Shown: positions 3,570-28,575 of the stretch, in pieces | Layout of the letters: each line of letters opens with the position of its first letter | How positions within the stretch are numbered: position 1 is the stretch's first letter | NCBI RefSeq assembly: GCF_000020025.1 | Contig: NC_010628.1 | Coordinates: forward strand, 2,490,001-2,522,000 | Direction of reading: 5' to 3' | DNA length: 32,000 nucleotides | Origin: Nostoc punctiforme PCC 73102 | GTDB lineage: Bacteria > Cyanobacteriota > Cyanobacteriia > Cyanobacteriales > Nostocaceae | Notes under the pieces: generated by a model | Database searches by the model: none | Told to the model about the DNA's origin: nothing | What the model saw: the letters and a program-made list of their open reading frames with translations, nothing else | Position numbers and translations under genes: made by a program

Positions 3570-3596
3570 ATAGCCCCTTCTCAAATTGATAGGGTT

Positions 3597-4145: not shown

Positions 4146-4170
4146 AATAAAAACTGGGGGTTTTCCCCAC
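4146..4170 (-). terminator. Weak candidate intrinsic terminator downstream of the cupin gene
   Basis: The minus strand reads TGGGGAAAACCCCCAGTTTTTATTT. This is a 4-5 bp G/C stem followed by a T-rich run, about 120 nt after the stop at 4287. The stem is short. Confidence 0.3.
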
Positions 4171-4286
4171 AATTAAAATTACTGAATTGGTGTTATGTAA
4201 AGGATTTCAAAGATTTTTTGAATGCTCTAAGTACACTTAATCTAGGGAAACTTGAGTTTAGGCTAGAAAACAGCTAAACATTTACT

Positions 4287-4793: not shown

Positions 4794-4863
4794 TGTGATT
4801 TTCCTCTTAAGGCATTACTAAACTTTTTCTAAATACCCAAATCCTTAAATTCCTCTTCCTGAC

Positions 4864-6147: not shown

Positions 6148-6195
6148 GATGATCTCCTGTGCATTAAATGTGGACGTTTTTGCGTCCAACCCATC

Positions 6196-7092: not shown

Positions 7093-7190
7093 AGGTGATA
7101 CTCCGTTGATTAAAGTTGATTCAATTCTGGGAAATTTCAAAATCTGGCAGAGCCTTCGGCATATTCTAGTAGTCTGCCAAGCTAACTTTG

Positions 7191-8357: not shown

Positions 8358-8396
8358 GTTACACCCCGTTTTTGGCTATTTTACCAATTAGAGGTT

Positions 8397-8849
8397 TTAC
8401 TTAGCAAAGTTACCTTGGTAGACTACTAGTGAGTCCACAATGTAAAGTGAAATCACTGGCTTCTGGGTTTTTGGCGATCGCTTCACCACCCAGGTTTGAT
8501 TCGCATCGGCAACAATTCGTTGACTTTTAGCTGTTGGTGGCTCCCAAGTGCTGGCTTGCCAGTTGACAATAACTTTAACTTCTGTATGGTCATTGCCAGT
8601 CGATGTAGACGCCACTTTTTTGAGAGTGTGTACTTCATCAAAGAAAATACCAGTTACACGCTCATACCAACCCTTAAAGCCATCAAAGCCATAGACTGTG
8701 CCCTCAGGAAAGCGCATTTCTAAATCTTCTTCAACTAGCAAGGGAACATATTCCTCAACTGGAACGTGAGCGTCGAGTTTCATATACCAATCTGTTGCCA
8801 GTTGCTGAATTTCCAAATCAGTTAGGGGTGCTAGATTACTTACTACCAT
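8397..8849 (-). CDS. NTF2-like/SnoaL-like small protein, native 3' end replaced by IS630 sequence
   Basis: The 150-aa ORF has a short alpha+beta-type composition. The fold assignment is weak. The last 9 codons and the stop (VVYQGNFAK*) are encoded by the IS630 right inverted repeat. Confidence 0.55.
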   Translation of the reverse strand: MVVSNLAPLTDLEIQQLATDWYMKLDAHVPVEEYVPLLVEEDLEMRFPEGTVYGFDGFKGWYERVTGIFFDEVHTLKKVASTSTGNDHTEVKVIVNWQASTWEPPTAKSQRIVADANQTWVVKRSPKTQKPVISLYIVDSLVVYQGNFAK

Positions 8850-8898
8850 TATTTTTCGACCAGGGAATCAGTGAACACGTTACTGAAATTTGCTTAAA

Positions 8899-10605
8899 CT
8901 ACTGTCCGCAGCTAATGCCTATCATTTCCGGGTGAACATTTGCCTCCAAAACCACATCGATAAGAAATGGTCCCTTGTGGGCTAATGCCTGTTCAAGAGC
9001 TGGGGCTATCTCTTGTGCCTTCTCGAGGCGCACACCCTCAACTCCCATAGAACGCGCTATTTCGACAAAATTAATCTCTGGCTTAGATAAATCAAAACTC
9101 AGGGGATATTCGTGCTGTGGTATATCCCGCTCTTGCCAGTAAGCTTGGATATTCACTTGTAACAACCTATAAGAGTGGTTATTACAGATGACAAATTTGG
9201 CATCTATATTGTGACGAGCAGCTGACCAAAGTGCCTGAATTGTGTACATAGCAGCGCCATCACCAGTAAACCCAATTACCGTTGTGTCAGGATTGGCCAG
9301 TTTGGCTCCAATCGTTCCCGGAATTCCCACACCTAAAGAACCACCACGGGAGAGGAAATAATGCCCTGGTTTGGTTGGTGGTAGATAACGCGTCAAATCA
9401 GGAGAACAGGTGAGAGCTTCATCGAAGATAATTACATCCTCTGGTAATTGCTTTGCCAGTTCTGCCGCGAAGCGAGAAAAGTGCAACGGGACAGCATCCC
9501 AATTTTCTCGATCAGCTTGCAACTCACGCTTATGGTTCTCTTCTTTAGCTTGGGCAATATCAGCAGTTCGTGTCTTAGCAGTTTCTTTCTGCTCTGATGT
9601 CATAACTGCTGACAAAACTTTTGCCAGATGAGCAAGAGTCAATTTTGGATCGCTAACTAGTCCCAAATCAACTGAGTGATTTTTAGCAATCTCATAAGCA
9701 TTCAAATCAATATGGATGACCTTGGCTCCCGGTGCAAAAATATTACCCAGTTCTGGAAATACTTCTGGCAAAAGGTAAGTACCACAAACTAAGTTTACAT
9801 CGCCTCTATTGGTGATGGGTCGGCTTTGATAGCCAAACATATGCCCTGTCATACCTTGATAAAGAGGATGAGCGTGACTCATGTTCAATTCGCCAGCATC
9901 AACTTCCCAGACTTCTGCGCCCAAAAGTTCAGCAACACGGGTCAGTTCATCTTGTGCGCTAGAATAAGCCACTCCATCACCCACAAAAATCATTGGCTTG
10001 TGAGCAGATGCCAACATAGTTGCTGCTGTTTTGAGCAACTCCTCATCTGGCAAAACTTTGGTGGATGGTATAGAAGTTGGTCTGACTTCCTCAACTGCGG
10101 GAGCATCCAAAATATCTACTGGTAGACAAACATACACAGGCCCCATTGGTGGAGTGGCAGCAATCTTAATAGCCCGTCGCAAAACCCGCAGCAATGAAGA
10201 TGGCTCCATCACCATTGTTGACCACTTGGTAACTGGCTCGGCAAAAGCTACCAAGTCTCCTGCCATTTGAGCATCCATTGCCTGATATTTGATGCCTGCA
10301 TCACCACCAATGACTACAAGCGGTGAGTGACCTCGGTATGCTTGGTAAAGTGCGCCGATCGCATTCCCTAAACCAGGGGTACTATGAATTTGCACCAAAG
10401 CAGGCTTTTTAGTTGCCCTAGCATAACCATCTGCTGCCATCACCGCAACGGATTCTTGCAATGTCAAAATGTACTTCAGGTCTGGATATTCCCGAATAGC
10501 ATCCAAAAATCCTTCTTCCGATGTGCCGGGATTACCGAACATATAATGGATGCCATCTGCCAAAAATTGTTCGAGAATTGCAAAGCGGCCTGTTTTGTTT
10601 GTCAT
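8899..10605 (-). CDS. Thiamine-diphosphate-dependent enzyme, benzoylformate-decarboxylase-like
   Basis: The PYR domain reads FGNPGTSEEGFL...YILTLQESVAVMAADGYARATKKPALVQIHSTPGLGNAIGAL...HSPLVVIGG. The ThDP/Mg motif is GDGAAMYTIQALWSAARHNIDAKFVICNN. The pattern resembles my memory of Pseudomonas putida MdlC. I set the start to the ATG at 10603-10605; the track start at 10623 is TTG. Confidence 0.8.
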   Translation of the reverse strand: MTNKTGRFAILEQFLADGIHYMFGNPGTSEEGFLDAIREYPDLKYILTLQESVAVMAADGYARATKKPALVQIHSTPGLGNAIGALYQAYRGHSPLVVIGGDAGIKYQAMDAQMAGDLVAFAEPVTKWSTMVMEPSSLLRVLRRAIKIAATPPMGPVYVCLPVDILDAPAVEEVRPTSIPSTKVLPDEELLKTAATMLASAHKPMIFVGDGVAYSSAQDELTRVAELLGAEVWEVDAGELNMSHAHPLYQGMTGHMFGYQSRPITNRGDVNLVCGTYLLPEVFPELGNIFAPGAKVIHIDLNAYEIAKNHSVDLGLVSDPKLTLAHLAKVLSAVMTSEQKETAKTRTADIAQAKEENHKRELQADRENWDAVPLHFSRFAAELAKQLPEDVIIFDEALTCSPDLTRYLPPTKPGHYFLSRGGSLGVGIPGTIGAKLANPDTTVIGFTGDGAAMYTIQALWSAARHNIDAKFVICNNHSYRLLQVNIQAYWQERDIPQHEYPLSFDLSKPEINFVEIARSMGVEGVRLEKAQEIAPALEQALAHKGPFLIDVVLEANVHPEMIGISCGQ

Positions 10606-10681
10606 GGATTCTACCTTCTGCAACCATCAATTGCATACAGTGTTTATCGTGCAGTACCATCCAGATATTTAAAATCCGACT

Positions 10682-11533
10682 TTACCAGCCATAGCGCTTG
10701 AGTCCTTTTTCTAAGACTTCCACCAACTTCTGACCAGTTAGATAAGAGTCTGGCGTAGAGCGCCCCGTAATAAACGGATAGTCAACAATTACTGATGTTG
10801 GCCTGCCGACATTGCCATGATACTGTCCGTCTGGCCCTGTAGCATCACGGAGTATGTATTCTAGAGGATAGAATGGCGTGCCAAAGTTAATATTGTTCAG
10901 ACATGGGTCGATGTTAGTACCGTTAAATCCCGTACCATCTTTGTAGTCATATTCCAGGCAATGGCCTGTGACGTGTTTACCCCAAATAATGCTCTTGCGA
11001 TCGCCAATGTCACGGGCAAATGCCAGACACGCAACGCCGTAACATTCTGCGGCGACTGGCTTACCCATTTGGTAAAAACTGAGGATGAGATCGTGTACTC
11101 TCTGGTTGTCAGCTAAATCAACCATCGGACCACTACCACCAACAATGAGAATGGCATCGTATGTTTGTAAATCTCTTTGCCGCACTTCATCTAGTAATCT
11201 GTAATATTCCTCCATTTCCCGTAAGAATTTTGGTGAACTCCAGTAAGGTCTTTCTGGGAGCCACTCTCTAAGATTTTTTGGGTTGTTTAACCGTGGATTG
11301 TTGGTGTCATCTAGTTGTCTGACCTTATCAGCCATATCTTGGGTGGTGACTGGTCTGCCTAATGGTGGGTCAACAAAAGTAGGGTCCATGCTTACCCCTA
11401 GTGCTACAGGTCTTTTACCATTTGGGGTGGCGAAGTCAACTTGATACCCAGCTGCATCAAAGGTTTCTAGGGGACCCACTAGTTCTTCTCCCCAGTAACC
11501 CCACTCTGATAGCACAATCAGAATCTTGGTCAT
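10682..11533 (-). CDS. Class I glutamine amidotransferase-like / DJ-1-PfpI superfamily protein (long form)
   Basis: The 283-aa ORF has ILIVGGSGPMVDL and a nucleophile-elbow-like AAECYGVACL. AAGGAG precedes the ATG, and the gap to the upstream gene is 4 nt. Confidence 0.65.
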   Translation of the reverse strand: MTKILIVLSEWGYWGEELVGPLETFDAAGYQVDFATPNGKRPVALGVSMDPTFVDPPLGRPVTTQDMADKVRQLDDTNNPRLNNPKNLREWLPERPYWSSPKFLREMEEYYRLLDEVRQRDLQTYDAILIVGGSGPMVDLADNQRVHDLILSFYQMGKPVAAECYGVACLAFARDIGDRKSIIWGKHVTGHCLEYDYKDGTGFNGTNIDPCLNNINFGTPFYPLEYILRDATGPDGQYHGNVGRPTSVIVDYPFITGRSTPDSYLTGQKLVEVLEKGLKRYGW

Positions 11534-11537
11534 CGGA

Positions 11538-12209
11538 TCATCTCCTTTGTGTTTCTAAGCAACGTTGTTCTTGAGATGCGATTTGGTGAGCGATCGCATC
11601 AATAAAGGCATACACATCATGTCCGGCTCGTCCTGTTACTAAGTCTCTATCAACCACAATATTTCCCGGATCATTTGGTTGAGAATTTACAGGTGGCGGT
11701 ACGTAAACAGCACCAGCATTCGCAATATCCGCCAGCACCACTTCATGACAGATTACCTTTCGTCCTCGGAGTAGTTCTGGCATTGGAGTCAGTAACCACA
11801 ATCCATGACAGAGTAAACCTTTGATAATCTTGTGATTTGCCATTGCTTGAGCAAAAAACTGAATTGCTGGTGCAGTACGAGTTTGCTCTGGACTAATCTG
11901 CTGTCCTGGCGGTGGTTGAAAGTAGCGCAGACGTACACTGGTGTAGTTAGCTGCCATAATTACGGCCGCATATTCATTCACATCTACGCTTTGAAAGTCG
12001 ATATTGACATCTAGATATTGCAGAGATTTACCAATTTCATCCACATCACTAACAAATTGTACAGTTTCATTTCCCCAAAGCCGAGACATGAAATGCACAG
12101 TCGCCCCAAGTTCCTCAAAGTGTTGCCGATAAGCTGCAATTTCCTCAGGAATGAACTCTGTTTCTACAAGGATGGCGACTTTCTTTCCTTCTAGCATTTG
12201 GGTCACCAT
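11538..12209 (-). CDS. DJ-1/PfpI family protein
   Basis: The 223-aa ORF has KKVAILVETEF...LLCHGLWLL (Cys-His nucleophile elbow). AGGAG precedes the ATG. Confidence 0.7.
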   Translation of the reverse strand: MVTQMLEGKKVAILVETEFIPEEIAAYRQHFEELGATVHFMSRLWGNETVQFVSDVDEIGKSLQYLDVNIDFQSVDVNEYAAVIMAANYTSVRLRYFQPPPGQQISPEQTRTAPAIQFFAQAMANHKIIKGLLCHGLWLLTPMPELLRGRKVICHEVVLADIANAGAVYVPPPVNSQPNDPGNIVVDRDLVTGRAGHDVYAFIDAIAHQIASQEQRCLETQRR

Positions 12210-12219
12210 AACTTATCTC

Positions 12220-14235
12220 CTAAGTCTTGGGTGTAAATTCCACAATGATTTCTGCTTCTGAACCAAGTTCAAATTCTTTCTCTCCCAGTTCAATTTGAAA
12301 ATTATCAGGGTCGATTGTGGTGCGATCGCTACCATTAATGCTGACTCTGTTAACTTCCAAAGTATTAGGTCTAAAAAAATCTGGTAAAACATTGAGAGAG
12401 CGCTGGCGACAATGTTTGTCAGGTTTGAAATACAAACAGAAGGGTTCTTTTGTCACATAACTACTGATATAGATATGAGCCAAATAATTTAACTCAAAGG
12501 CATGGTATCCAGAAATTGCATGTCCGCCTTTTTGTGCATATTGCCCTACAGTAGTTGCATCTCCACTCTCACTGACTCGGAAGAAAATACCTTTATTGTC
12601 TTGGTCGAGAAAGAATAGATTCCAAAATGCGGCAGTTTCTCGTGCTAACCGCAAATACTCTTGTTTTTGGTCATTATCTTCATGACTGCAACCATGAAGA
12701 ATTAAGTAGGCTAATAGGGCTTGTTCTTGTTGCCAGAAGTCTTTAGTGTTGAACCAAGGAAACTCTAGTGGCGTTCCATTTTGAGGGTTACGTTCTAAAG
12801 TATCAAAGATTCCACCCCTAAATAGATCTACGCCAATCTCTGCCATCTTCATGCCTAAATTGTCTGCTAGCTTCATCAATTTATCAGCTAAACGTTGTGA
12901 TTCTTCGGCTTCTTGCGCGTTATCAGCAGCAGATTGGGCGGCTAAGGAGTAATAATAGTTAGCAACACGAGTCAGGTTCCAGGCTATCTTCAAATTGTGT
13001 CCGATAACGGCACGATTTTGTTGCCACCGCCAATTATGGTCTGGTTTCCAATCTCGCAAAAATCGCTCATTCACAAATGGAACGTTGGGATCAGGATCGG
13101 GAAATCTATCGGCAATGATTGTGGAGGCTGTTTTGAGAATCTTTTTGCAGGTTTCTAAAAATTTCCCGATTTCTTCATGACCATGATCAGTTAATGGCAA
13201 AGGTTCTAATGCCAAAATCACGTTAATTAAATAAGCCGGTATATGATCCCCAATCGAGTTCCAATTTTTTCTGGCTTGGTTATCACCAAGAGCAGGACTA
13301 TCCCAATTTAACGTCACAGAATCAAGGTGTGAGAAATAATCACCGTAAGCATGTTTACCGTACTCTGATTCTGGATCGATGAAGAAATCATTAAAGACAC
13401 GAACAGTCCGCTTGATATCATCAAGTACTTCCCAATCTAAAGTGATTCGATAGTACTGAGCTAATCCAGCTAAGGCGTAAATTTGTTCGTAAAGCGGGAT
13501 TGTATCTCTATCATCCTCATTGAGAGAACGTATATACAACTGATAACTGTACTTTGTCTTGCGCTTGCCAAATGCCCAAAAACAATGTTTGCCATCAGAT
13601 GTCAAACTGCGAAAAGTTTCACGTTGGTATTGAACTCCAGCACGAGCCGCTGAAAGATAGCGTTCACCTCCAGTTAGCAAGTAAGCAGAGGAAAGACCAT
13701 AGATCAGCCTGGAAAGAGTAGCACATTCTTGAATCTCATCATCTGTTGGTAAACCGATGATGTTTAGGTTAGTTCGGTAAAGAGCAAAATCATCGATTTC
13801 ATAGGTTTGTTTATTTGGAAATAAAAAGCCTAACCAACTATCTGCTAGGCGGGCAATTTGGGTCAGCCACCAATGAGTTTGCTCAAAAACTAATTCGTCT
13901 TGACCTCTATATGAATTTAGTAAGTTAACAATGCGGGCATCATATTGGCAGCTACCATTATTTTCTTGATACACCCCTTGCAGAACTACTAAGCTATCCG
14001 ACTGGATGTATTTTCTCACTAAATCTGCTGGTGAGGACTGATGAAAATCTTCAGGATTCGGGACGCGATCGCGGTTTATACCATCTAAATTTTGTAGAAA
14101 TTGAAATCGTGTTTCCCTACCAATTGCAACCTCGAACTCATCTCCACTACGGCATTTAATACTAAATTTTCCTTGCTCCTGTGCAATATCCGTAACTTTG
14201 CCCATCAGAGTTGTGTTCACAGTGAATTTTCTCAT
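12220..14235 (-). CDS. Large protein with probable AGE-type (N-acylglucosamine 2-epimerase-like) alpha/alpha-barrel core
   Basis: The 671-aa ORF is rich in Trp/aromatic helical repeats. The C-terminal GGHAISGYHAFELNYL resembles the conserved YH..R/E element of AGE/cellobiose-epimerase/YihS enzymes. It has extra N- and C-terminal domains. I made the assignment from memory, without a profile search. Confidence 0.4.
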   Translation of the reverse strand: MRKFTVNTTLMGKVTDIAQEQGKFSIKCRSGDEFEVAIGRETRFQFLQNLDGINRDRVPNPEDFHQSSPADLVRKYIQSDSLVVLQGVYQENNGSCQYDARIVNLLNSYRGQDELVFEQTHWWLTQIARLADSWLGFLFPNKQTYEIDDFALYRTNLNIIGLPTDDEIQECATLSRLIYGLSSAYLLTGGERYLSAARAGVQYQRETFRSLTSDGKHCFWAFGKRKTKYSYQLYIRSLNEDDRDTIPLYEQIYALAGLAQYYRITLDWEVLDDIKRTVRVFNDFFIDPESEYGKHAYGDYFSHLDSVTLNWDSPALGDNQARKNWNSIGDHIPAYLINVILALEPLPLTDHGHEEIGKFLETCKKILKTASTIIADRFPDPDPNVPFVNERFLRDWKPDHNWRWQQNRAVIGHNLKIAWNLTRVANYYYSLAAQSAADNAQEAEESQRLADKLMKLADNLGMKMAEIGVDLFRGGIFDTLERNPQNGTPLEFPWFNTKDFWQQEQALLAYLILHGCSHEDNDQKQEYLRLARETAAFWNLFFLDQDNKGIFFRVSESGDATTVGQYAQKGGHAISGYHAFELNYLAHIYISSYVTKEPFCLYFKPDKHCRQRSLNVLPDFFRPNTLEVNRVSINGSDRTTIDPDNFQIELGEKEFELGSEAEIIVEFTPKT

Positions 14236-14881: not shown

Positions 14882-15296
14882 TCAAGAAACCGTATTTGCT
14901 TCGGGCTGAGGAATGAGTTCAAAACCTAAAGCTAAAGCCTTTTTTTGTAGGTTATTGATAACTTGTTCTTGGTAACGTTGTTCATAATAATCCATGCCAA
15001 TATCTTGATAGTTACCTCCAGTTGTCCAAAGTAGGTAAAAAATTCGTGCCAGCTTATGAGCAGTAGCAGTGATAGCTTTGGGCGTGCCAAGTCGAGAACG
15101 TAAGCGACGATAGAAAGCACAACTCGGCAGAATTGCTCTTGCCAGCTGTTTGTGTGGCTATTCGGAAAGCATTGGCAGCAGGGTTAACCACCAAGCGAGT
15201 TTAAGAACTTTTAACTTTACCAACAGTGATGCGATTACAAGGGCAAAGACCAAGTCAAGAAGTAAAGTGTTTAACAGTTGGGAATCGGGTAAAATC
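14882..15296 (-). pseudogene. IS110-family transposase, C-terminal remnant
   Basis: My hand translation reads DFTRFPTVKHFTS*LGLCPCNRITVGKVKSS*TRLVVNPAANAFRIATQTAGKSNSAEL. After a frameshift it continues CAFYRRLRSRLGTPKAITATAHKLARIFYLLWTTGGNYQDIGMDYYEQRYQEQVINNLQKKALALGFELIP...*. These are typical IS110 C-terminal motifs, interrupted by two in-frame stops and one frameshift. No N-terminal half is present. Confidence 0.7.
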
Positions 15297-15373
15297 GGTT
15301 TTGGTTCTGGAATTAGGTCGCTGAGAAATTCATATTGGGCACATGTCAGGTTGCTAGGGTATGCTTTACTCAT
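15297..15373 (-). pseudogene. IS5/IS4-type (DUF4096-like) transposase N-terminal stub
   Basis: MSKAYPSNLTCAQYEFLSDLIPEPKP resembles the conserved N-terminus of cyanobacterial IS5-family transposases. Similarity stops abruptly where the IS110 remnant begins. Confidence 0.4.
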
Positions 15374-16164
15374 GTCACTCTATCGGTGCTGTTTATTATC
15401 TATTCACAGCTTATACTGAGAGAGCTTTTTTACACCCTTTCCGACTTTTCAAACATTCTCTTAGAATCCAATACCTAAAACTCTGTATTTTCTAAATGTG
15501 TAAACCTTATATCTATATTTAAATTTGGCAAAAATTATTTTTATTTCAATCCATCTATTGGATGATGATTTTTAAGAAAATAAGGTTCTTCCGGTACTTT
15601 TATGGTGATTACTAAAGAACCGTAAATTTTAGTAACTACATTTTAATGAGGCTCATCCTTAAAATATAGATTGCGTAAGTCTTACAGCAGTTTCACTTGT
15701 ACTCAAATAATCCAAGCATCATGATTTATACTAGGGGCACAAATAATTCCAATTGATGGAAAAACATTTAAGGGTACTATGGAATTTGTTCATCAATCAC
15801 CTCGACATGACGATGATATTATTTGTTGGGGTAAATGTGCCATTTCCCACACTTACCATTAAACCATTATACCCTACAAAACTTTCTGGCACAAGGGATG
15901 CCGAAAACGATCGCCTACGGTGGGCGGAACGCCATCGCCTGCTTAGATACTCTCCCTTATTTCATCTATTTCAGCAAACTCATCCTCGATTGCGCGAACT
16001 GAGAATTATTACAGTTTACAATAATGATTATTATTTTTACTGAAATCTATGTGACCTGTAAATTCAACTACCGACAAGCCATTGAACCTATTTCAACGTC
16101 CCCGTCGTACTGCAACCCTGGGGCGAATGGTGCGGAAAACTACCCTGACTGTAGATGATCCGAT

Positions 16165-17325
16165 CTATCCAATGTTTGTGATGGAAGGTGAATGTAACTT
16201 TTTGGCTTCCTGGCTTAGGCATCCAGGTACTCTAGTTGTGAACTTATCAGCTGGACTTAGAGCAACATTGCCCCAGCGCATTACAGTTGCAGCAGCGTTA
16301 GACACTGAACCAATAGAGTATACAAGAACCAAATCGTTTTCGTGAATCTTGCCTAATTGTGCGCCGTGGTAAAGATTAGCAATGGGCAGCATTGGCCCAA
16401 TATTTGCATATTGGGGATAAAGGTTAATCGTCCGCTCCTGCTGGATGCCTAATGCTTCGGTACAGAGGGAGGAATACCAGGCAGTGGGTGTATTAAAAGC
16501 ACAAAATTGAATTTGCTCCAGGGTAACACCAGCCGCAGCGATCGCGCCCAAGCAGCACTCACGCAAATAATTTACAGCAGTCTCGCTCAGTACTTTGTTG
16601 GTGTGCTTGCCTGCTCGGATTAACATCCTTACATTACCCTCAGCATCCGTAGTAAATTCATTATAGAAGGTGTCGCAAGTTGCACATGTGTTCACAATTT
16701 TGGTGCTAATAATTCCCTGATTTTGTTTGAGCGCGCCAACCACAAAGGCTCCAGCACCGTCACCGAAAAACCATGAGAGAGTATCATTTTCATCAGTAAA
16801 GCGAGAGTAAGTGCAAGAGACTACCACCAACACATTACGATACTCTCCAGTTCGCACCAGCGCAGTAGCATTTTGCAGCGCAACCACAGCATTAGAACAG
16901 GTTGAATCAAGATTCCAAGCCGCACCGCGCAGATCGAGTTGAGCAGCAAGGAAAGCCGCATTGCCAGGTAGAATATTTTCTGGCCAAAGTGAAGCAACAA
17001 TCATCAAATCGACCTCTTCCGGAGACAGTTTTGCCGCTGCCAAAGCGTCCCTTGCTGCGCCATACTCTAGCGTGAGCGATGACTCCCCCGGACCCAATAT
17101 TCTGCGCTCAACAGTACCACGGAAAGGATCTTTGAGATACGGTGACATTTTTAATTCAAACTCATTGGTGGGGATGGAATCACCAGGCGAAAATACCTTT
17201 GATAGACTTTTTTGTTCAGCTGTTGCCACTAAATCTGGGTAATTCTTTCGCCAATAATCATTAGTGCGAACAACACTAGGAAAGTTGACTGCAATTGACC
17301 GAATTCCTACTGGTGGATATATCAT
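16165..17325 (-). CDS. Atypical KAS III-like (FabH-fold) condensing enzyme/acyltransferase
   Basis: The 386-aa ORF has an ATG preceded by AGGAG. It shows thiolase-fold blocks: NLDSTCSNAVVAL (Cys), FFGDGAGAFVV and YANIGPMLPI (Asn). The His block of FabH (MHQAN) aligns to AFNTP. It has a roughly 30-aa insertion near the N-terminus and a roughly 35-aa C-terminal tail. Confidence 0.75.
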   Translation of the reverse strand: MIYPPVGIRSIAVNFPSVVRTNDYWRKNYPDLVATAEQKSLSKVFSPGDSIPTNEFELKMSPYLKDPFRGTVERRILGPGESSLTLEYGAARDALAAAKLSPEEVDLMIVASLWPENILPGNAAFLAAQLDLRGAAWNLDSTCSNAVVALQNATALVRTGEYRNVLVVVSCTYSRFTDENDTLSWFFGDGAGAFVVGALKQNQGIISTKIVNTCATCDTFYNEFTTDAEGNVRMLIRAGKHTNKVLSETAVNYLRECCLGAIAAAGVTLEQIQFCAFNTPTAWYSSLCTEALGIQQERTINLYPQYANIGPMLPIANLYHGAQLGKIHENDLVLVYSIGSVSNAAATVMRWGNVALSPADKFTTRVPGCLSQEAKKLHSPSITNIG

Positions 17326-17340
17326 AATAAATCTCCTGAA

Positions 17341-17500
17341 AAAGTGAGGAAGTGGAGGATGCGGGGAAGAGGCAGGGGAGCAGGGGAGGATTAGGGGACA
17401 AGGAGGACAAGGAGGAATTATTGAACAAGTCTCTTCCTTGTCTCCCCCCTCTTCTTTGTCTCCCTTGTCTCTTCTCTATGCCCAATGTCCAATGCCCAAT
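17341..17500. repeat. Purine tract, then pyrimidine tract (imperfect long palindrome), then a tandem heptamer
   Basis: 17341-17416 is almost all purine and includes ggacaagga ggacaagga. 17431-17478 is almost all pyrimidine (ttccttgtctcc...tttgtctcccttgtctc). 17478-17500 is atgcccaatgtccaatgcccaat, about 3 copies of TG[C/T]CCAA. Confidence 0.6.
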
Positions 17501-17505
17501 TAATA

Positions 17506-19266
17506 TTACTTTCCATGAAAAATGAGACTGTTAATCCTACTACCAATGGGTGCTGGACGAGTCGGATCAATAATCACATCAACAACGAATGGAATAGTCA
17601 AGGCTAGTGCTTTTTCTAAAGCCGCTTCTAGATCGCACTCCCTGCTTACACGAATACCATCGGCTCCCATACCACGGGCAATCATCACGAAATCCGGGCT
17701 GGGAATCTCTGCATCCACATTGTGGAACCCCTCCATGTTCATACCTTGGTCGCACATGTTGTAACGTGCATCATTGAGTACAATCCAGACAGCAGGAATT
17801 TTGTGTTTGACGGCGGTAGTAATTTCGTTGTTCATCAGCATGGCACCATCACCGAGAATGGCTACAGCTTTGCGATTTCGCGCCAGTGCGGCACCTAAAA
17901 TACCCGTACCAGCATGTCCCATTGAACCAAATCCAGTACTTACCCGGTAACGCCCTGGTGCAGCAAATCGCAGTATATTTGTTCCCCAAGCAAAGGAGTT
18001 ACCAGCCTCGGTCATGATGATTGCATCGCTATTCTCGACAATTACCCTTTGAATCGCATCCATCAAAAATTCAGGACGTACTAAACCTTCCAGATGGGAC
18101 TTGATGACCTCGCGTTCAGGACGGGGTAGGGGTAACACTGATGAAGAACGAGAGATTTCTGGAAAATACTTCAGTATAGCCCTGACAAAAGCTCCGATAT
18201 CAGACTGAACGGAGAATGTCTCTGCATACGGATAAGCAGCTCCCGGTACTTCTGGGTCGATATCCACATGAACAAACCCCCGTGAAGGAACCATGACTGG
18301 GTTCCAAAATGAAGTAAATTCACCTAACTTAGTTCCCAAAACCAGTACGCGCAAAGGACGCTGTTCCTGCATATATTTGAGAACAGAGTTTTGCCCGCCG
18401 AAGCCAGTCACACCGACAAACTGAGGATGATCCTCAGGAAAGATACCTTTACCACGAGCTGATGACATCACCGCCGCTCCGGTTCTCTCAGCAAGTTGAC
18501 GAATTTCTAAAGCTGCATCTTTAGCACCAAAACCGACCCAAATGGCAAACGGCGCTTCACATAGCAGTTGTAAACATTTGCTGATAGTATCTTCTCCAGC
18601 CGTCACCAAAGTTGGTGAAAAATTCACATGGGGTAATGGTGTTGTTAGCAAACTTGTCTGGATGGTTCTGGGAATACTAATATGGGCGACAAAGCCACCT
18701 AATTTCCCTACACCTAGTGCCAGCCTGCGAGCAATTTCAGAGAGTTCCGAGTTGCATTCAACGGTGGTAGCATAATGAAATAATGTGCCTGAAGTAAAAA
18801 TGCCTGTATTAGACATTGTGTATTGGCTGGTTTCTTGAAAAGCCCAGCGTCCGCGCTGTGTTGCAGAGGTGCAAGGTGATACGAAAATAACTTTTGCTCC
18901 TTCCCAACGAGCCGCAAACAGCCCAGTCAAGGCATTAGTAATACCTGGACCGGTTGTGCTGAACACTACAACAGGATGTCCGCTAGCAAAGTATGACTCA
19001 ATAGCTGCGAATGCTGCTCCGGCTTCATGACGAAATTGCAGCACCTCGATTGAGCTTTGCTCTAGGCTAGCTATGAAGGGTGTGATTCCCCCTCCGAACA
19101 GACCAAAAGCATAGCGGACTCCCAAATTTTCCAGCGTCTTCACTAAAGCTGCTGCAACAGTTAAATCGCTTGTCTGTTCAATTGAGAATAGATCCGATTG
19201 GATAGCAGTGTTTCTCTGCAACTGATCCAATGAATTTAAGGTTTTGGTAATTGTTTCTACGTTCAC
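17506..19266 (-). CDS. Thiamine-diphosphate-dependent enzyme, acetolactate-synthase-like (candidate carboligase/acyloin synthase)
   Basis: The 586-aa ORF has a GTG start. It reads FRHEAGAAFAAIESYFASGHPVVVFSTTGPGITNALTGL (PYR domain with catalytic Glu) and has the ThDP motif GDGAMLMNNEITTAVKHKIPAVWIVLNDARYN. Confidence 0.85.
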   Translation of the reverse strand: MNVETITKTLNSLDQLQRNTAIQSDLFSIEQTSDLTVAAALVKTLENLGVRYAFGLFGGGITPFIASLEQSSIEVLQFRHEAGAAFAAIESYFASGHPVVVFSTTGPGITNALTGLFAARWEGAKVIFVSPCTSATQRGRWAFQETSQYTMSNTGIFTSGTLFHYATTVECNSELSEIARRLALGVGKLGGFVAHISIPRTIQTSLLTTPLPHVNFSPTLVTAGEDTISKCLQLLCEAPFAIWVGFGAKDAALEIRQLAERTGAAVMSSARGKGIFPEDHPQFVGVTGFGGQNSVLKYMQEQRPLRVLVLGTKLGEFTSFWNPVMVPSRGFVHVDIDPEVPGAAYPYAETFSVQSDIGAFVRAILKYFPEISRSSSVLPLPRPEREVIKSHLEGLVRPEFLMDAIQRVIVENSDAIIMTEAGNSFAWGTNILRFAAPGRYRVSTGFGSMGHAGTGILGAALARNRKAVAILGDGAMLMNNEITTAVKHKIPAVWIVLNDARYNMCDQGMNMEGFHNVDAEIPSPDFVMIARGMGADGIRVSRECDLEAALEKALALTIPFVVDVIIDPTRPAPIGSRINSLIFHGK

Positions 19267-19367: not shown

Positions 19368-19390
19368 CTAACTCCTAACTCCTAACTCCT
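19368..19390. repeat. Tandem heptamer (AACTCCT)n, about 3.3 copies, overlapping the 3' end and stop of the CoA ligase
   Basis: ctaactcctaactcctaactcct. A further partial copy lies at 19331-19337. The same heptamer occurs at 24048-24061. Confidence 0.8.
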
Positions 19391-20909
19391 GCCTTTTTTC
19401 AACAACCTGAGATATTGATTCCTGACGTAAAAATCGCTTTAATACTTTACCAGTGGAGTTTTTTGGAATTGAGTTTACAAAGTTAATTACACGGGGAACT
19501 TTATAAGCTGCCATCCTTTCATAACAAAAATCAATGATTTGTTGTTCGGTGATTGTCTGACTAGCTTTTAGGATAATATTTGCTTTGACAATCTCGCCTT
19601 TGAGAGGATCGGGAACGCCATATATAGCTACTTCAGCTACTGCTGGGTGTTGATAAATGACATTTTCAACTTCTGTTGGATATACCTTGAATCCAGAAAC
19701 AACGATCATGTCTTTTGAACGGTCAATTACGTAGAAAAAACCGTCTTCATCCATCCGACCAATGTCGCCAGTATGTAACCAACCATTTTTAATTACTTCT
19801 GCGGTTTCAAAAGGGCGGTTCCAATAACCAAGCATGACGTTGGCACCCTTAATTGTTATCTCGCCTAACTCACCTATTTCTACCTGATTACCATCACCAT
19901 CTACAATTTTCATTTCCACATTTGCAATGGGTGTTCCAACGCTACCTAGTTTGTAGTTCAAGTTGTGGTTATAAGCAGCAAATGGCGATGTTTCAGTTAG
20001 GCCATACCCTTCATGGATGACAAATCCAAACTTTTTATACCAATTTTCTGCTACTTGCAATGGCATTGGTGCTGCTGCTGAAAAGTAATAGCGGATGTTT
20101 TCCAGGTTATAGTTAGAAGTATCCATGTTCAGTAGTTTAATGAATACTGTCGGCACACCAAATAGCATTGTTACTTGATGTGTAGTGATGGTTTCTAGAA
20201 CTTGATCTGGGTCAAATCGACGCTGTAAAATGATAGTCGTACAAGCAGAAATACCAGCATTTAGAATTGCATTTTGTCCAAAACAATGGGATAAAGGTAA
20301 GAAAAGCAGTAAGCGATCGCTCTTTTGAATGCGATAGCAACAATTAGCACAATAGCTATTAAAAATAACATTGCCATGAGAAAGTGTAGCACCTTTAGGA
20401 AAGCCTGTAGTACCTGATGTATAAAGGATGCTTGCAGGATCATCGCGACTCATTTCAACGGCGCGTGCTTCAGGAGAAGATTTTGCCATCAGTTGTTTTA
20501 GACTAATACCTTTATTGGCTCTACCTTCTGCAATCAAAATATGTTGCAATTGAGGTAAGTCTGGCTCTTGAATATACTCGGTTTGCGACTCTGTTGTAAT
20601 AATTGCTTTGGCAGCACAATCGTTGAGAATGTATCTAACTTCATCGGTTTTGAGCATAATGTTGATTGAGACAGCAACCGCGCCAATTTTCAGAATGCCA
20701 AGATAAGAAATTACAAATTCTGGAATGTTTGGTAAAAATAAGGCTACACGATCTCTACGTCTAATATCCAAACTGCGTAGACCGTTAGCAACGCGATTTA
20801 CCATTTCATCAAGGTCTTTGTAAGTAAAAGATTCTTCTTCAAAAATTATGGCTGGTTTGTTGGGGAAAAGGTAGCAACTAAGCTCTAGATTTTGGGCAAT
20901 ATTCATCAT
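19368..20909 (-). CDS. AMP-dependent acyl-CoA ligase (4-coumarate/cinnamate-CoA-ligase-like or fatty-acyl-CoA-ligase-like)
   Basis: Adenylate-forming motifs are present: LYTSGTTGFPKGA, HEGYGLTETS, GWLHTGDIGRMDEDGFFYVIDRSKD and GKVLKR. AAGGTGA precedes the ATG. Confidence 0.9.
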   Translation of the reverse strand: MMNIAQNLELSCYLFPNKPAIIFEEESFTYKDLDEMVNRVANGLRSLDIRRRDRVALFLPNIPEFVISYLGILKIGAVAVSINIMLKTDEVRYILNDCAAKAIITTESQTEYIQEPDLPQLQHILIAEGRANKGISLKQLMAKSSPEARAVEMSRDDPASILYTSGTTGFPKGATLSHGNVIFNSYCANCCYRIQKSDRLLLFLPLSHCFGQNAILNAGISACTTIILQRRFDPDQVLETITTHQVTMLFGVPTVFIKLLNMDTSNYNLENIRYYFSAAAPMPLQVAENWYKKFGFVIHEGYGLTETSPFAAYNHNLNYKLGSVGTPIANVEMKIVDGDGNQVEIGELGEITIKGANVMLGYWNRPFETAEVIKNGWLHTGDIGRMDEDGFFYVIDRSKDMIVVSGFKVYPTEVENVIYQHPAVAEVAIYGVPDPLKGEIVKANIILKASQTITEQQIIDFCYERMAAYKVPRVINFVNSIPKNSTGKVLKRFLRQESISQVVEKRQELGVRS

Positions 20910-21080: not shown

Positions 21081-21094
21081 TAATTACAAATTAC
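21081..21094. repeat. Two copies of heptamer AATTAC[A/G], overlapping the PAL stop codon
   Basis: aattacaaattacg. The PAL TAA stop (21091-21093) lies inside the second copy. Confidence 0.7.
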
Positions 21095-22800
21095 GTTGAC
21101 TTTAAGCTCGAAAAAATATGCTCAACTGCTTGCACAATTAAACCACCACCAGCGATATCAGCTGAAATCCGGGCAATATGCTCATCTAAACATTGCTCGT
21201 TGTCGTTCCAAATGTATGGACGCACAGACGTTAGTGGCTTTCCAACTACCTCGCAGACTGCTGTGTATAACTGCACAGTATTGGGTGAGAGGCATGTACG
21301 TGCATCATAATGACCTTTCATCTTATATGTGCGGAGGTCAACAGCTTGAACTCCAAACATCAACGCGATCGCCATATAATTCTGAAATATGTCTACGGAA
21401 CGACGTGTCAAATTTGCGGAAATATAGCCTTGGCTGTTAATATTTTGATTAAATTGCTCGGCGTGGGTAGGAAAGCGATCGGCTAGGGAATTTCCATAGA
21501 AGCTCAACAGTGGCATAATCGAGTTTCCACTGATTTGCAAACCTTTGAGTCCCATATTAACTTTGCGATCGCTATTACCAACTAAAGAGGGTGGTAAGCC
21601 GTTGCTAAACTCTGGCGAGACAAGAAGTGCAATCTGCACATCGATGTGTTTGGCCAATAGCCCTATGTAATAACGTAGGCGATCCATTGTCACACCCACA
21701 TACTGTCCGAGAAAATTGCCGCCGTGATAACTAACTTGGTTCTCGACATCAATCAATGGGTTATCGGTGACTGAGTTCATTTCTACCTCGATTTGCTTGG
21801 TAATCTCTGATACCCCATCAACGATTGGCCCTATGAACTGTGCCAGACAGCGGAGAGAATAACGATCCTGTATCAGATCTTTACCACGGTATTCGTGTTT
21901 ACCATCCAACTCTTCACGAACTAAAGATGAATCTTTCAGCAGAGAAAACATTTGATCTGCTGTCCATAGTTGACCGGGATGTGGCTTGCACTGATGAATA
22001 AACGGGTGGAAAGATTGATTCGTTCCGTATAAACCTTGGATGGCTAAGGCGTGTACACCCATTGTCAGAGCGAGCAAAACTTTCGCATCGTACACACAGT
22101 TAGCTGCAATACCTGTCATGACTGAGGTGCCATTCATCATTGCTAAACCTTCTTTCGGTTGCAATTGCAACTTTGGCAAACCCAAACGAGACAAGGCTGT
22201 AACGGCATCCATTTCTTTACCGTCGAAGTCAACTGTAAAGCTAGGATCTAGACCGATTAGTGCCCCAGTAATGTAGGATAATGGCACCAAATCGCCGCTA
22301 GCACCGATAGAGCCAAACTCATAGACATGGGGTGTCACGCCAGCGTTGAGGAAAGTTTCAATCCGCTGAATAAGTTCGAGTCGTATACCAGACGCACCAT
22401 ACAAATGTGAATTTGCACGTAAGAGCATAGCTGCACGCACGTCTGCTAACGATAATTTGTTTCCTGCGCCGGATTTCAGAAACCAAATTAAATTAGTCTG
22501 AAGTTCCGCTGCTTGTTCGCGAGAGATGACAACATCTGCCATACCGCCAAAGCCAGATGTCACCCCGTAAATTGGCTGTGCTGTTTCGACTGCATTGTTA
22601 ATGTAATCACAAGATGCTTGAACACCCCGAATGACATCTGCATTATCAGTTAAGCGCACCTGTGTTCCATGACGAGCAACATTTACAACCTCGTCGATTG
22701 TCAGATTGCGATCGCCTACAGTTACGATTGAATCTGAACTATTAGTGAAAGGTATTTGCCAAGAACGCGTTATGTTCTGTTGTAGAGATGTTATATTCAT
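21091..22800 (-). CDS. pal: Phenylalanine ammonia-lyase (MIO-dependent aromatic amino acid ammonia-lyase)
   Basis: The 569-aa ORF has the MIO-forming triad in GSIGASGDLVPLSYI and the Phe-Leu selectivity pair in NLIWFLKSGAG (PAL-type, not the His-Leu of TAL). Its length and sequence agree with my recollection of the characterised N. punctiforme PAL, and it is very similar to Anabaena variabilis PAL. Confidence 0.93.
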   Translation of the reverse strand: MNITSLQQNITRSWQIPFTNSSDSIVTVGDRNLTIDEVVNVARHGTQVRLTDNADVIRGVQASCDYINNAVETAQPIYGVTSGFGGMADVVISREQAAELQTNLIWFLKSGAGNKLSLADVRAAMLLRANSHLYGASGIRLELIQRIETFLNAGVTPHVYEFGSIGASGDLVPLSYITGALIGLDPSFTVDFDGKEMDAVTALSRLGLPKLQLQPKEGLAMMNGTSVMTGIAANCVYDAKVLLALTMGVHALAIQGLYGTNQSFHPFIHQCKPHPGQLWTADQMFSLLKDSSLVREELDGKHEYRGKDLIQDRYSLRCLAQFIGPIVDGVSEITKQIEVEMNSVTDNPLIDVENQVSYHGGNFLGQYVGVTMDRLRYYIGLLAKHIDVQIALLVSPEFSNGLPPSLVGNSDRKVNMGLKGLQISGNSIMPLLSFYGNSLADRFPTHAEQFNQNINSQGYISANLTRRSVDIFQNYMAIALMFGVQAVDLRTYKMKGHYDARTCLSPNTVQLYTAVCEVVGKPLTSVRPYIWNDNEQCLDEHIARISADIAGGGLIVQAVEHIFSSLKST

Positions 22801-22857: not shown

Positions 22858-22911
22858 AATTACGAATTACGTTAGGTAGCGGGGCGTAGCCCATTACGAA
22901 TTACGAATTAC
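22858..22911. repeat. Tandem heptamer (AATTACG)n interrupted by a 21-nt insert
   Basis: aattacgaattacg (22858-22871), then ttaggtagcggggcgtagccc (22872-22892), then attacgaattacgaattac (22893-22911). The array abuts the FabH stop at 22911-22913. Confidence 0.8.
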
Positions 22912-23912
22912 TATAGACCCCACTCAAAAATAGCAGCACCCCAAGAAAGTCCTGCTCCAAACCCAGCTAAAGCAACAACATCGTGCGCTTTAATTTGCCC
23001 TCGCCGAACAGCTTCATCCAAAGCTAGGGGAATTGAAGCAGCAGAAGTATTTCCGTAATTTGCTAAATTGCTAATGATTTTTTCATCAGGAATTCCTAAA
23101 CGTTGAGCCACAGCCTCTAAAATCCGCTGATTGGCCTGATGCATCAATAGCCAGTCTACCTGTTTAACATCCAGACCTGCCCGGAATAGTGCCTTTTCAA
23201 TAACTTCAGGGACTTTTTGAATAGCAAATCGGTAAACTTCTTGTCCGTTCATTGCAATAGGTTTATATGTACCTTGACCAACGCTAATATTATCAACAAG
23301 TACTTTCTCTTCCTCCTGGAATTCCAATTTCAAATGCTGATTTTGCGTGCCATTAGTATGAAGTTGAAAACCAAGGAGATAATCATATTCACTTGCTTGT
23401 AAAACCACTGCTCCTGCTCCATCACCAAATAGAATGCAGGTACGTCGGTCAGACCAATCTACCCACCGTGAAAGAACTTCAGCACCAATGAGAAGAACAT
23501 TTTGATAAGTACCAGTCCGCATAAATTGGGCAGCAGTTACCAAACCAAAAACAAAACCAGAGCAAGCTGCTGTTAAATCAAAAGCTACAGCTTGGGTAGC
23601 TCCGAGTCGAGCTTGGATTTGACTGGCATTACCAAACAAATCATCAGGAGTAGATGTAGCTAAGATAATTAAATCTAAGTCTTGTGCTGTTATACCTGCC
23701 ATATCTATGGCTTTTTGAGCCGCTTCAGTAGCCATAGTTGTGAGCGAGTTTTTGGCTGGAAGAAGATGGCGACGGTGAATTCCTGTGCGAGATTTGATCC
23801 AATCATCACAAGTAACCACCATTTGATTGAGTTGATGATTATCTAAGCACTGATCTGGAACCGCAGAGCCAGTCCCTGTCAAAACAATACCTTGTCTTAC
23901 TAAGGATTTCAT
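22911..23912 (-). CDS. fabH: Beta-ketoacyl-ACP synthase III
   Basis: The 333-aa ORF has a canonical triad context: DLTAACSGFVFGL (Cys), LLMHQANQRI (His) and YGNTSAASIPLALDEA (Asn). Confidence 0.9.
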   Translation of the reverse strand: MKSLVRQGIVLTGTGSAVPDQCLDNHQLNQMVVTCDDWIKSRTGIHRRHLLPAKNSLTTMATEAAQKAIDMAGITAQDLDLIILATSTPDDLFGNASQIQARLGATQAVAFDLTAACSGFVFGLVTAAQFMRTGTYQNVLLIGAEVLSRWVDWSDRRTCILFGDGAGAVVLQASEYDYLLGFQLHTNGTQNQHLKLEFQEEEKVLVDNISVGQGTYKPIAMNGQEVYRFAIQKVPEVIEKALFRAGLDVKQVDWLLMHQANQRILEAVAQRLGIPDEKIISNLANYGNTSAASIPLALDEAVRRGQIKAHDVVALAGFGAGLSWGAAIFEWGL

Positions 23913-23973
23913 CTGCTTTAATTGCTAATTATTTTGTGTAGTTAAAATCTTTGATTCTGCTTTACCTTTGTAA

Positions 23974-24042
23974 GGTGTGTTATGCCGTAGGCTAACGCAC
24001 CATCCTAGATTTTCGGTGCGTTAGCTTACGGCATAACACACC
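23974..24042 (-). repeat. 28-bp-stem hairpin between KAS II and KAS III
   Basis: The arms are 23974-24001 (ggtgtgttatgccgtaggctaacgcacc) and 24015-24042 (ggtgcgttagcttacggcataacacacc). They are complementary apart from one G:T position, with a 13-nt loop. The hairpin starts immediately after the KAS II stop. No T-run follows it on the minus strand. Confidence 0.7.
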
Positions 24043-25311
24043 CTAATAACTCCTAACTCCTAGCTCAAATTTTTTAAAAGCTAAAGAGACATTATGTCCT
24101 CCAAAACCAAAAGAGTTAGAAAGAGCAACATCTACTCTTTGAGTTCGACTTTTATGGGGAACATAGTCTAAATCACAGTTTGGATCTGGCTGTTCTAAAT
24201 TGATTGTTGGTGGAATTAAATCAAGAGCCACACTCTTGACTGTAGCAACAGCTTCGATGCCTCCAGCAGCGCCCAAAAGATGGCCAGTCATTGATTTTGT
24301 GGAACTAATAGGAATTTGGAAAGCGCGATCGCCAAGAGCTTTTTTAATCGCTAAAGTTTCTATGGCATCATTAGCTAAGGTGCTAGTGCCGTGAGCATTA
24401 ATATAACTGACTTCGTTGGGGAATATGCCACCATCTTTTAAAGCTAGTTCCATAGCTCTCATGACTCCCTCTCCGCTAGGAGTTGGAGCAGTCATGTGGT
24501 AAGCATCACAAGTCAGACCATAACCAACAATTTCTGCATAGATTTTTGCTCCACGGCCAAGAGCGTGTTCTAATTCCTCTAAGAATAAAATGCCTGCTCC
24601 TTCTCCCATCACAAAACCATTGCGATCACGATCGAACGGACGAGAGGCACGGGTGGGTTCTTCATTTGCGGTTGATAGCGTCTTGGCAGAACCGAAGGCA
24701 GCTATAGACAGAGGTGTAATCACAGCTTCTGTACCACCACAAATCATTCCTAAAGCATGACCTAACTGAATTGAGCGAAAAGCTTCTCCGATAGCATTAC
24801 CTCCAGCAGCGCAAGCTGAAACAGTACAAAAGTTTGGCCCTTTAGCTCCTGTGTAAATTGCTATTAGTCCAGCTGCCATGTTAGCTATTGTCATCGGCAC
24901 TGTAAAAGGACTACAGCGTTTAGATCCCTGAGTCAGGAGAACTTTTTCTTGCTCCTCTACAGTATAGAGGCCGCCCATACCGTTGCCCACAATAACGCCC
25001 ACTTGAGTAGCATTAGAGTCATTAATTTCAAAACCAGCATCGGCGATCGCTTGAAGACTTGCAGAGATTCCAAATTGAGCAAAACGAGATATATGCTTAA
25101 CATCTTTGCGTTCTAGATAATCATAAGGGTTAAAGTCTCTAACTTCGCCTGCAATTCTACATATATGCAAAGAAGCATCAAATTGGGTAATCAAATCAAT
25201 TCCACTTCGTCCCGCAATCAATCCTTCCCAATATTCCTTGATGGTATTTCCTAAAGGGGTAATAGCTCCCATACCTGTAACTACAACCCGCCGGATATTT
25301 TTGCTAATCAT
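24043..25311 (-). CDS. fabF: Beta-ketoacyl-ACP synthase II
   Basis: The 422-aa ORF reads VSACAAGGNAIGEAF (Cys), YHMTAP (His), INAHGTST (His) and SSTKSMTGH. The end FGFGGHNVSLAFKKF is followed by a 7-aa tail ELGVRSY encoded by heptamer repeats. Confidence 0.92.
   Translation of the reverse strand: MISKNIRRVVVTGMGAITPLGNTIKEYWEGLIAGRSGIDLITQFDASLHICRIAGEVRDFNPYDYLERKDVKHISRFAQFGISASLQAIADAGFEINDSNATQVGVIVGNGMGGLYTVEEQEKVLLTQGSKRCSPFTVPMTIANMAAGLIAIYTGAKGPNFCTVSACAAGGNAIGEAFRSIQLGHALGMICGGTEAVITPLSIAAFGSAKTLSTANEEPTRASRPFDRDRNGFVMGEGAGILFLEELEHALGRGAKIYAEIVGYGLTCDAYHMTAPTPSGEGVMRAMELALKDGGIFPNEVSYINAHGTSTLANDAIETLAIKKALGDRAFQIPISSTKSMTGHLLGAAGGIEAVATVKSVALDLIPPTINLEQPDPNCDLDYVPHKSRTQRVDVALSNSFGFGGHNVSLAFKKFELGVRSY
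24048..24061. repeat. Two copies of heptamer AACTCCT inside the 3' end of KAS II
   Basis: aactcctaactcct. It has the same unit and orientation as the array at 19368-19390. Confidence 0.7.
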
Positions 25312-25320
25312 AAGTAAAAC

Positions 25321-25566
25321 TCAAATAAAAACTTTCTGATTGATGTAATTAACGATTTGTTGTACTGTTACAAGTTGCTTTGCTTCCCGATGAGGAATTT
25401 TTGTATTGAAAGTATCCTCTAGTGTTTGGAACATTGCTATCAAGTCTAAATAATCTGCCCCTAAATCTTGAATAAGATTAGCATCTAGGGTGATTTTTTG
25501 CTGTTCATTTGCTAATTCTTTGGCAACAACAGCTTGGACTGTGTTAAATATATCTTGTTGGGTCAT
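25321..25566 (-). CDS. Acyl carrier protein homologue lacking the phosphopantetheine-attachment serine
   Basis: The 81-aa ORF has the helix II motif LIQDLGADYLDLIAMFQTLED, against canonical DLGADSLD. The Tyr codon TAT is at 25450-25452. The protein contains no Ser. AAGAGG precedes the ATG, and its stop is 9 nt before the KAS II start. Confidence 0.75.
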   Translation of the reverse strand: MTQQDIFNTVQAVVAKELANEQQKITLDANLIQDLGADYLDLIAMFQTLEDTFNTKIPHREAKQLVTVQQIVNYINQKVFI

Positions 25567-28318: not shown

Positions 28319-28575
28319 CGATCTAAGCTCCGACAGTGTAAATGTTTAACTCGATCTTATACTATGAAGCTGCGTCAGACCAATACAGTTCAGCTAATAT
28401 TGAAAATTGAATTTCATGCAGCTTTATTTTAATTTCTTAACCAAAACTAAAACTCTACTTAACTGAAATGTATTGGTGTAAAAATAGTACTTTACGATGC
28501 AAATAAAGCTACTATCTGAAATAGGCTTTTACCTTTGCCTTTAATCTTTATCAACAGTCCAATTTGACTAAAAAA

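Follow-up and report, generated by a model that had tools for sequence, protein, structure and literature searches.

The nostoclide operon and its surroundings

The 32,000-nucleotide stretch of Nostoc punctiforme PCC 73102 DNA analysed here (the window) carries an operon of minus-strand genes that reads, in order, ACP-like, FabF, FabH, ammonia-lyase, CoA ligase, ThDP enzyme and, finally, a KAS III-like gene that is the target of this analysis. The target starts with ATG, and its start agrees with those of its homologues in alignment A1. A sequence-only reading of the window had described it as the terminal gene, directly after the ThDP enzyme, and this placement holds: a 180-bp gap separates the two genes, and the target is the last of the block. 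In a promoter and terminator scan of 15300-17600, no signal exceeded what shuffled sequence would give, and the target was followed by no terminator. Coordinates are collected in Table 1.

Table 1. Operon genes, protein segments and active-site codons, with positions in the window and the basis of each assignment
Feature	Position	Strand	Basis
Target: very probable FabH-fold furanolide synthase, CybF orthologue of the ncl cluster	16165..17325	minus	386 aa; ORF, Pfam, 70% identity to CybF, AF2 model
C-terminal extension past the FabH core, residues 353-386	16168..16269	minus	Alignment A1 and model
Asn308 codon, equivalent to FabH Asn274	16402..16404	minus	Alignments; invariant in A2 and in 83/83 loci
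Asn278 codon, at the FabH His244 position	16492..16494	minus	Alignments; Asn in 83/83 loci
Cys143 codon, equivalent to FabH Cys112 (nucleophile)	16897..16899	minus	Alignments; invariant in A2 and in 83/83 loci
N-terminal insertion, about residues 30-63, family-specific, not in FabH	17137..17238	minus	Alignment A1 and model
ThDP-dependent acyloin-forming enzyme, CybE orthologue, predicted acceptor supplier	17506..19266	minus	NF035927; 67% identity to the cyb ThDP gene
Acyl/aryl-CoA ligase, CybC orthologue, predicted cinnamoyl-CoA maker	19368..20909	minus	Pfam AMP-binding; 69% identity to the cyb ligase
Phenylalanine ammonia-lyase, NpPAL = NclD, cinnamate maker	21091..22800	minus	Identity to PDB 2NYF; PMC9324945
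Canonical FabH (Cys-His-Asn)	22911..23912	minus	NCBIfam 414 bits, above cut-off; nearest ncl relatives only
FabF-type KAS II	24043..25311	minus	TIGR03150 623 bits; nearest ncl relatives only
ACP-like, first operon gene, Tyr at the phosphopantetheine-attachment Ser	25321..25566	minus	NCBIfam ACP 82 bits, above cut-off

The ammonia-lyase ties the locus to published work. Its product is 100% identical, MIO-forming residues aside, to PDB 2NYF, the crystallised PAL of N. punctiforme. This PAL (RS10365) was named NclD and, with its neighbours, was placed in the nostoclide (ncl) subcluster within the pks1 region on the basis of co-regulation and homology to the cyanobacterin cluster (PMC9324945). Because the window's PAL is identical to 2NYF and is the protein named NclD, the locus is the published ncl subcluster. 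Nostoclides N1 and N2 were isolated from the same strain (PMC9324945). The ThDP enzyme next to the target matched NCBIfam NF035927 (ScyA-related TPP enzyme) at 1037 bits, above the cut-off.

The first three genes of the operon have a narrower distribution. The ACP/FabF/FabH trio (22911-25566) accompanies the furanolide core in no loci but those of N. punctiforme and its four or five closest relatives (L001, L004-L007), and is missing from cyb and from about 70 other furanolide-type loci. The furanolide route, which uses three building blocks, has no need of it. The attachment motif of the ACP-like protein reads LGADYLDL, with Tyr kept in five orthologues (L001, L004-L007; 72-100% identity). 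Since this Tyr is conserved, the gene looks, from its sequence, like a maintained Ser-less ACP.

Transposase remnants flank the operon (15158-15461 and 25920-26231). On the upstream side, before the ACP-like gene, is an IS630-type DDE fragment; on the downstream side, about 0.7-1.0 kb past the target, is a transposase-like N-terminal fragment, near the end of synteny (15461) with a 99%-identical JGI contig (L001). Past the break, L001 has a ShlB/TPS two-partner-secretion pair instead. Farther downstream, 1515-14235 (minus strand) holds a second run of small-molecule-type genes, including glyoxalase-like, GMC oxidoreductase, SnoaL_2, cupin, FrsA-like hydrolase and double-SnoaL proteins, IS630 fragments, a benzoylformate-decarboxylase-like ThDP enzyme (8899-10623), two DJ-1/ThiJ-like proteins and a 671-aa ORF (12220-14235) with no Pfam or NCBIfam match. 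Upstream of the operon, at 27557-31987 (minus strand), are genes for a 253-aa protein with no Pfam match, an FMO-like flavoprotein, an SRPBCC polyketide-cyclase-like protein and a type II thioesterase. These genes may form the border of the neighbouring nvl (nostovalerolactone) subcluster of PMC9324945.

Relationship to CybF and distribution of the family

The closest homologues of the target are cyanobacterial proteins of 370-385 aa with 60-90% identity, and the best match in a genome-contig scan was from Nostoc sp. C117 (92%). One homologue, P0010 (L003/L009), is 70% identical to the target over 93% coverage and is encoded within the cybA-K cluster of [Scytonema hofmanni] UTEX 2349. The genes there run DAHP synthase, ammonia-lyase, CoA ligase, O-methyltransferase, ThDP enzyme (1872 bp) and KAS III-like gene (1131 bp), followed by NmrA-like, Rieske, halogenase, methyltransferase and tyrosinase genes. 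The published cybE and cybF genes (Tolypothrix sp. PCC 9009) have exactly these two sizes. Because both cluster content and gene sizes agree with cyb, P0010 is CybF, the characterised furanolide synthase.

The target and CybF (Tolypothrix sp. PCC 9009 / Scytonema hofmanni UTEX 2349) share the Cys-Asn-Asn residues, the N-terminal insertion and a short conserved C-terminal extension, and each is encoded directly after the ThDP enzyme with the ammonia-lyase and CoA ligase upstream. The two clusters differ around this core. Whereas ncl uses PAL and hence cinnamate, cyb uses tyrosine-derived coumarate; ncl lacks the cyb tailoring genes (DAHP synthase, O-methyltransferases, NmrA-like, Rieske, halogenase and tyrosinase) and carries the ACP/FabF/FabH genes that cyb does not. 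The identity of 70% falls within the range of the family, since the functionally validated furanolide synthase MacF is 76% identical to CybF. MacF (maculalactone cluster, Nodularia sp. NIES-3585) belongs to the same family and follows the same four-gene core logic as the target, a likeness drawn through its identity to CybF and its gene set; its system differs in the aryl beta-substituent. The four core furanolide genes (B, C, E and F) are present in cyb, ncl and mac (PMC13288894).

We compared 83 related loci, 79 of which had enough flanking sequence to judge gene context and four of which had too little. A ThDP gene lay directly upstream of the target homologue in 74 of the 79, which bears out the coupling to the ThDP enzyme suggested by the sequence-only reading. 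The CoA ligase and ammonia-lyase co-occurred in nearly all sufficiently flanked loci, and the order ammonia-lyase, CoA ligase, ThDP enzyme, KAS III-like gene was conserved across loci. No further conserved gene followed the target across the compared loci.

The target thus combines similarity to CybF, adjacency to a ThDP gene, clustering with an ammonia-lyase and a CoA ligase, and the Cys/Asn/Asn signature, all of which point to a furanolide synthase. We consider it highly likely that it is the furanolide synthase of the N. punctiforme PCC 73102 nostoclide pathway and the orthologue of CybF. Its identity, as the CybF-type furanolide synthase of the published ncl cluster, is already known.

The family itself extends further. 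When 1.84 billion cluster representatives were searched, members were recovered down to about 35-40% identity, among them proteins from Myxococcota, Acidobacteriota and an actinomycete. Five homologues (57-64% identity) had no intact ThDP gene upstream. Those at L082 (9989-11512), L078, L079 and L083 share 57-61% identity and the same Cys-Asn-Asn with the target and lack the ThDP and PAL partners. The L082 homologue is fused to a C-terminal carrier domain, and its neighbours include an aryl-AMP ligase, an isochorismate-synthase-like gene, two PPTases, an NRPS module and an AMIN-domain TonB receptor; by its gene content, this locus looks like a siderophore-type cluster. The target's family is therefore not restricted to furanolides, and family membership alone leaves the substrate unfixed because five homologues have no intact ThDP gene and L082 sits in an NRPS-type cluster.

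Active-site residues and predicted structure

Pfam assigned ACP_syn_III (3.9e-17) and ACP_syn_III_C (3.4e-07) domains to the target. The NCBIfam FabH models scored it well below their cut-offs (NF006829, 122 bits against 249; TIGR00747, 116 bits against 292). From a by-eye alignment to the FabH of the same operon, the sequence-only reading had proposed that the catalytic Cys and Asn are retained and that the His has become Asn. BLASTP between these two proteins paired NLDSTCSNAV with DLTAACSGFV, FCAFNTPTAW with WLLMHQANQR and YPQYANIGPM with LANYGNTSAA, and phmmer alignments to the solved FabHs 2EBD, 1UB7 and 4DFE gave the same register. BLASTP against E. coli FabH (reference sequence checked to be identical to 1HN9) equated C143 with C112, N278 with H244 and N308 with N274. 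All three independent alignments therefore place Asn278, and no His, at the catalytic position, as the by-eye comparison had it.

His244 and Asn274 of FabH are required for malonyl decarboxylation and not for transacylation, and loss of the imidazole is consistent with loss of malonyl-ACP decarboxylation. Since its His244 equivalent is absent, the target is predicted not to be a malonyl-ACP-decarboxylating KAS III, in agreement with the earlier view and with the missed FabH cut-offs.

The substitution is not peculiar to this gene. In a 113-sequence alignment (A2), C143 and N308 were invariant and N278 was at least 90% conserved, and all 83 related loci had Cys-Asn-Asn with the family motif F-F-x-F-N-T-P-x-A-W-Y (FCAFNTPTAW in the target). 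This Cys/Asn/Asn and FNTPxAW signature was derived in the present analysis rather than taken over from a published definition. Among representatives of 50%-identity clusters, Cys143 and Asn308 were nearly invariant, and Asn predominated at the His position, where Ser, Thr, Pro, Tyr or Phe also occurred; a FabH-like His-Gln pair returned only at 33% identity or below. Because Asn prevails across the 83 loci and the cluster representatives, His-to-Asn is a signature of the family.

Two side observations concern individual sequences. In a set of representatives with 33-56% identity (P0122, P0159, P0189, P0190 and P0218), some have Gln or Asn at the nucleophilic Cys, which recalls KS-Q-type variants, and others vary at the His position. 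In the window, codon 275 (16501-16503, base 16502), three residues ahead of Asn278, encodes Cys (TGT). This position is Phe in 81 of the 82 other loci and Leu in one; CybF has Phe, as does the 99%-identical strain (TTT). F275C is the one non-synonymous change between the target gene of the window and that of this strain, beside four synonymous ones, and may either be specific to the window's strain or reflect a sequencing error.

An alignment-based AlphaFold model of the target adopted the FabH fold with a mean pLDDT of 92.7 and a pTM of 0.91; a single-sequence model (pLDDT 42) was discarded in its favour. Foldseek against the PDB returned FabH, PqsBC, PqsD, BioZ and similar chains only, at 18-26% identity and query-normalised TM scores of 0.69-0.77. 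FabH was also the closest match in a PDB sequence search (E = 9e-27), and neither search found a furanolide synthase structure in our PDB copy. Compared with FabH (E. coli 1HN9 and the same-operon protein), the target has the same fold (Foldseek E ~1e-28; TM 0.71-0.77 query-normalised, up to 0.90 target-normalised), 26% identity and Cys and Asn at homologous positions. It differs in having Asn for His244, some 30 inserted residues and a tail of about 34 more and, by orthology, would use an arylacryloyl-CoA donor and an acyloin acid acceptor rather than malonyl-ACP. PqsC/PqsD, CorB, MxnB and OleA share the thiolase/FabH fold, and PqsBC entries are among the best structural matches, but these proteins are less similar to the target than true FabHs (E 1e-13 to 1e-4 versus 1e-27) and differ from it in catalytic residue sets and chemistry.

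Both additional segments had been noticed from the sequence. The N-terminal insertion, which is absent from FabH, is conserved within the family (alignment A1) and forms two helices in the model (30-45 and 55-63) with a lower-confidence linker between them. At the other end, a tail of roughly 35 aa had been proposed; the end of FabH aligns at W351-G352 of the target, which leaves 34 residues. Residues 353-360 (VALGP) are family-conserved, and the remainder is variable, with low confidence past about residue 360 (pLDDT ~55).

With an altered triad and PqsBC entries among its top structural matches, the target could conceivably be a catalytically dead FabH-like subunit that acts as a scaffold for a partner, as PqsB does in PqsBC. 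We find this scarcely credible, because the active site is strictly conserved: Cys143 and Asn308 are invariant, and NTPxAW persists in over 80 loci and in homologues with as little as about 40% identity. The four synonymous changes versus one non-synonymous change noted above also speak against a dead protein, and papers that cite the CybF study describe purified CybF as active on its own.

Proposed chemistry of the furanolide synthase

The mechanism that we propose for the target is transferred from CybF. According to papers that cite the primary CybF study, CybF with only CybE and the CoA ligase present converted an arylacryloyl-CoA (or SNAC thioester) and the alpha-hydroxy-beta-keto acid made by CybE into a furanolide in vitro. 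The steps given there begin with O-acylation and decarboxylation, continue with C-C bond formation of the Morita-Baylis-Hillman type and end with a 1,4-hydride shift; with suitable substrates, CybE and CybF also gave nostoclides N1 and N2. PMC8777810 invokes an active-site nucleophile for the Morita-Baylis-Hillman step. A minimal macBCEF construct produced furanolides in E. coli (PMC13288894). No mutagenesis or active-site residue data for CybF-type enzymes were found in the literature covered.

Applied to ncl, the pathway would begin with PAL converting Phe to cinnamate, an activity established in the literature for exactly the protein encoded in the window. The CoA ligase, by orthology, would then form cinnamoyl-CoA, and the ThDP enzyme, as an orthologue of CybE, would couple an arylpyruvate with an aliphatic 2-oxo acid to give an alpha-hydroxy-beta-keto acid. 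By orthology with CybF, the target would join this acid to cinnamoyl-CoA through decarboxylative O-acylation, close the ring by intramolecular Morita-Baylis-Hillman-type C-C bond formation and complete the reaction with a 1,4-hydride shift. The product would have an alpha-benzyl, gamma-benzylidene butenolide core. Cinnamoyl-CoA is the expected acyl donor because PAL stands in for the tyrosine-derived route.

The active-site residues can be given tentative roles in this scheme. Cys143 may accept the cinnamoyl group from CoA, supply the nucleophile for conjugate addition in the Morita-Baylis-Hillman step, or both. Asn278 and Asn308 lie where His244 and Asn274 of FabH polarise the malonyl thioester carbonyl and would stabilise enediolate or enolate intermediates. 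A bolder version treats Cys-Asn-Asn as a repurposed KAS III decarboxylation pocket. Here, Cys143 would act twice, first as the cinnamoyl carrier and then as the thia-Michael nucleophile, and Asn278 and Asn308 together would decarboxylate the alpha-hydroxy-beta-keto acid in place of malonyl-ACP. The same version makes the trio an accessory: in the N. punctiforme lineage, the Ser-less ACP, FabF and FabH could feed or modulate the synthase and so lead to products beyond nostoclides N1/N2. Taken jointly, these proposals are possible and more doubtful than probable.

The presence of ACP, FabF and canonical FabH genes, co-transcribed upstream in the N. punctiforme lineage, might instead suggest a priming ketosynthase that loads cinnamoyl-CoA onto this set, for example for a phenyl-terminated acyl chain. 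However, the target lacks the His for malonyl decarboxylation, the operon ACP lacks its attachment Ser, and the strain's known products require no chain extension. In about 70 orthologous loci, including cyb, the trio is missing, yet the target homologue is tightly linked to the ThDP enzyme. A priming role is therefore very improbable.

Somewhat less remote, though still unlikely, is a pure O-acyltransferase similar to XclB/C or CerJ, which would esterify the acyloin hydroxyl with cinnamoyl-CoA and leave ring closure to occur spontaneously or through another protein. Several FabH-fold acyltransferases likewise keep the Cys and lose the His, and O-acylation is the first step described for CybF in the papers that cite its study. 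Against this, CybE and CybF suffice for ring formation: with a CoA ligase as the sole other catalyst they reach the furanolide in vitro, according to the same papers, and macBCEF is enough in E. coli. The compared loci also have no additional conserved gene after the target that might close the ring. A furanolide synthase that performs both acylation and cyclisation, as inferred from orthology with CybF, remains our preferred reading.

The sequence-only reading had pointed in the right functional direction, toward an altered-triad enzyme with an acyl-CoA donor and an acyloin or hydroxy acceptor, which agrees with the O-acylation of a ThDP-derived acyloin acid by arylacryloyl-CoA expected from CybF. 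It did not name the CybF furanolide synthase family, and the families that it offered as examples (CerJ/ChlB6, tetronate-forming, DarB/OleA and XclB/C) appear not to be the right ones: the target belongs to the CybF furanolide synthases, which do more than transfer an acyl group. FabH-fold acyltransferases of the CerJ/ChlB6/DpsC type have Cys(or Ser)-His-Asp catalytic residues; we rejected this type for the target, which has Cys-Asn-Asn, and no CerJ or DpsC chain appeared among the PDB sequence matches at E ≤ 1e-3. The OleA/DarB type was also rejected, as the StlD/DarB model NF005293 scored 21 bits against a cut-off of 450 and OleA chains matched only at E ~1e-4. In xenocyloin biosynthesis in Xenorhabdus, a ThDP acyloin synthase is followed by the KAS III-like protein(s) XclB/XclC, which O-acylate the acyloin. 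By description, this logic of ThDP enzyme and KAS III-like acylation resembles that of the target, but the reaction of the Xcl enzymes ends with the ester, and no lactone is made.

With the odd KAS III recognised as the furanolide synthase of a published cluster, the locus requires no new functional hypothesis. What remains of modest interest are the roles of Cys143, Asn278 and Asn308 and of the Ser-less ACP/FabF/FabH trio. At the residue level, our analysis defines a Cys143/Asn278/Asn308 signature and an FNTPxAW motif for the furanolide synthase family. This signature could serve as a marker for genome mining and as a guide to mutants for what is the first proposed enzymatic Morita-Baylis-Hillman reaction.
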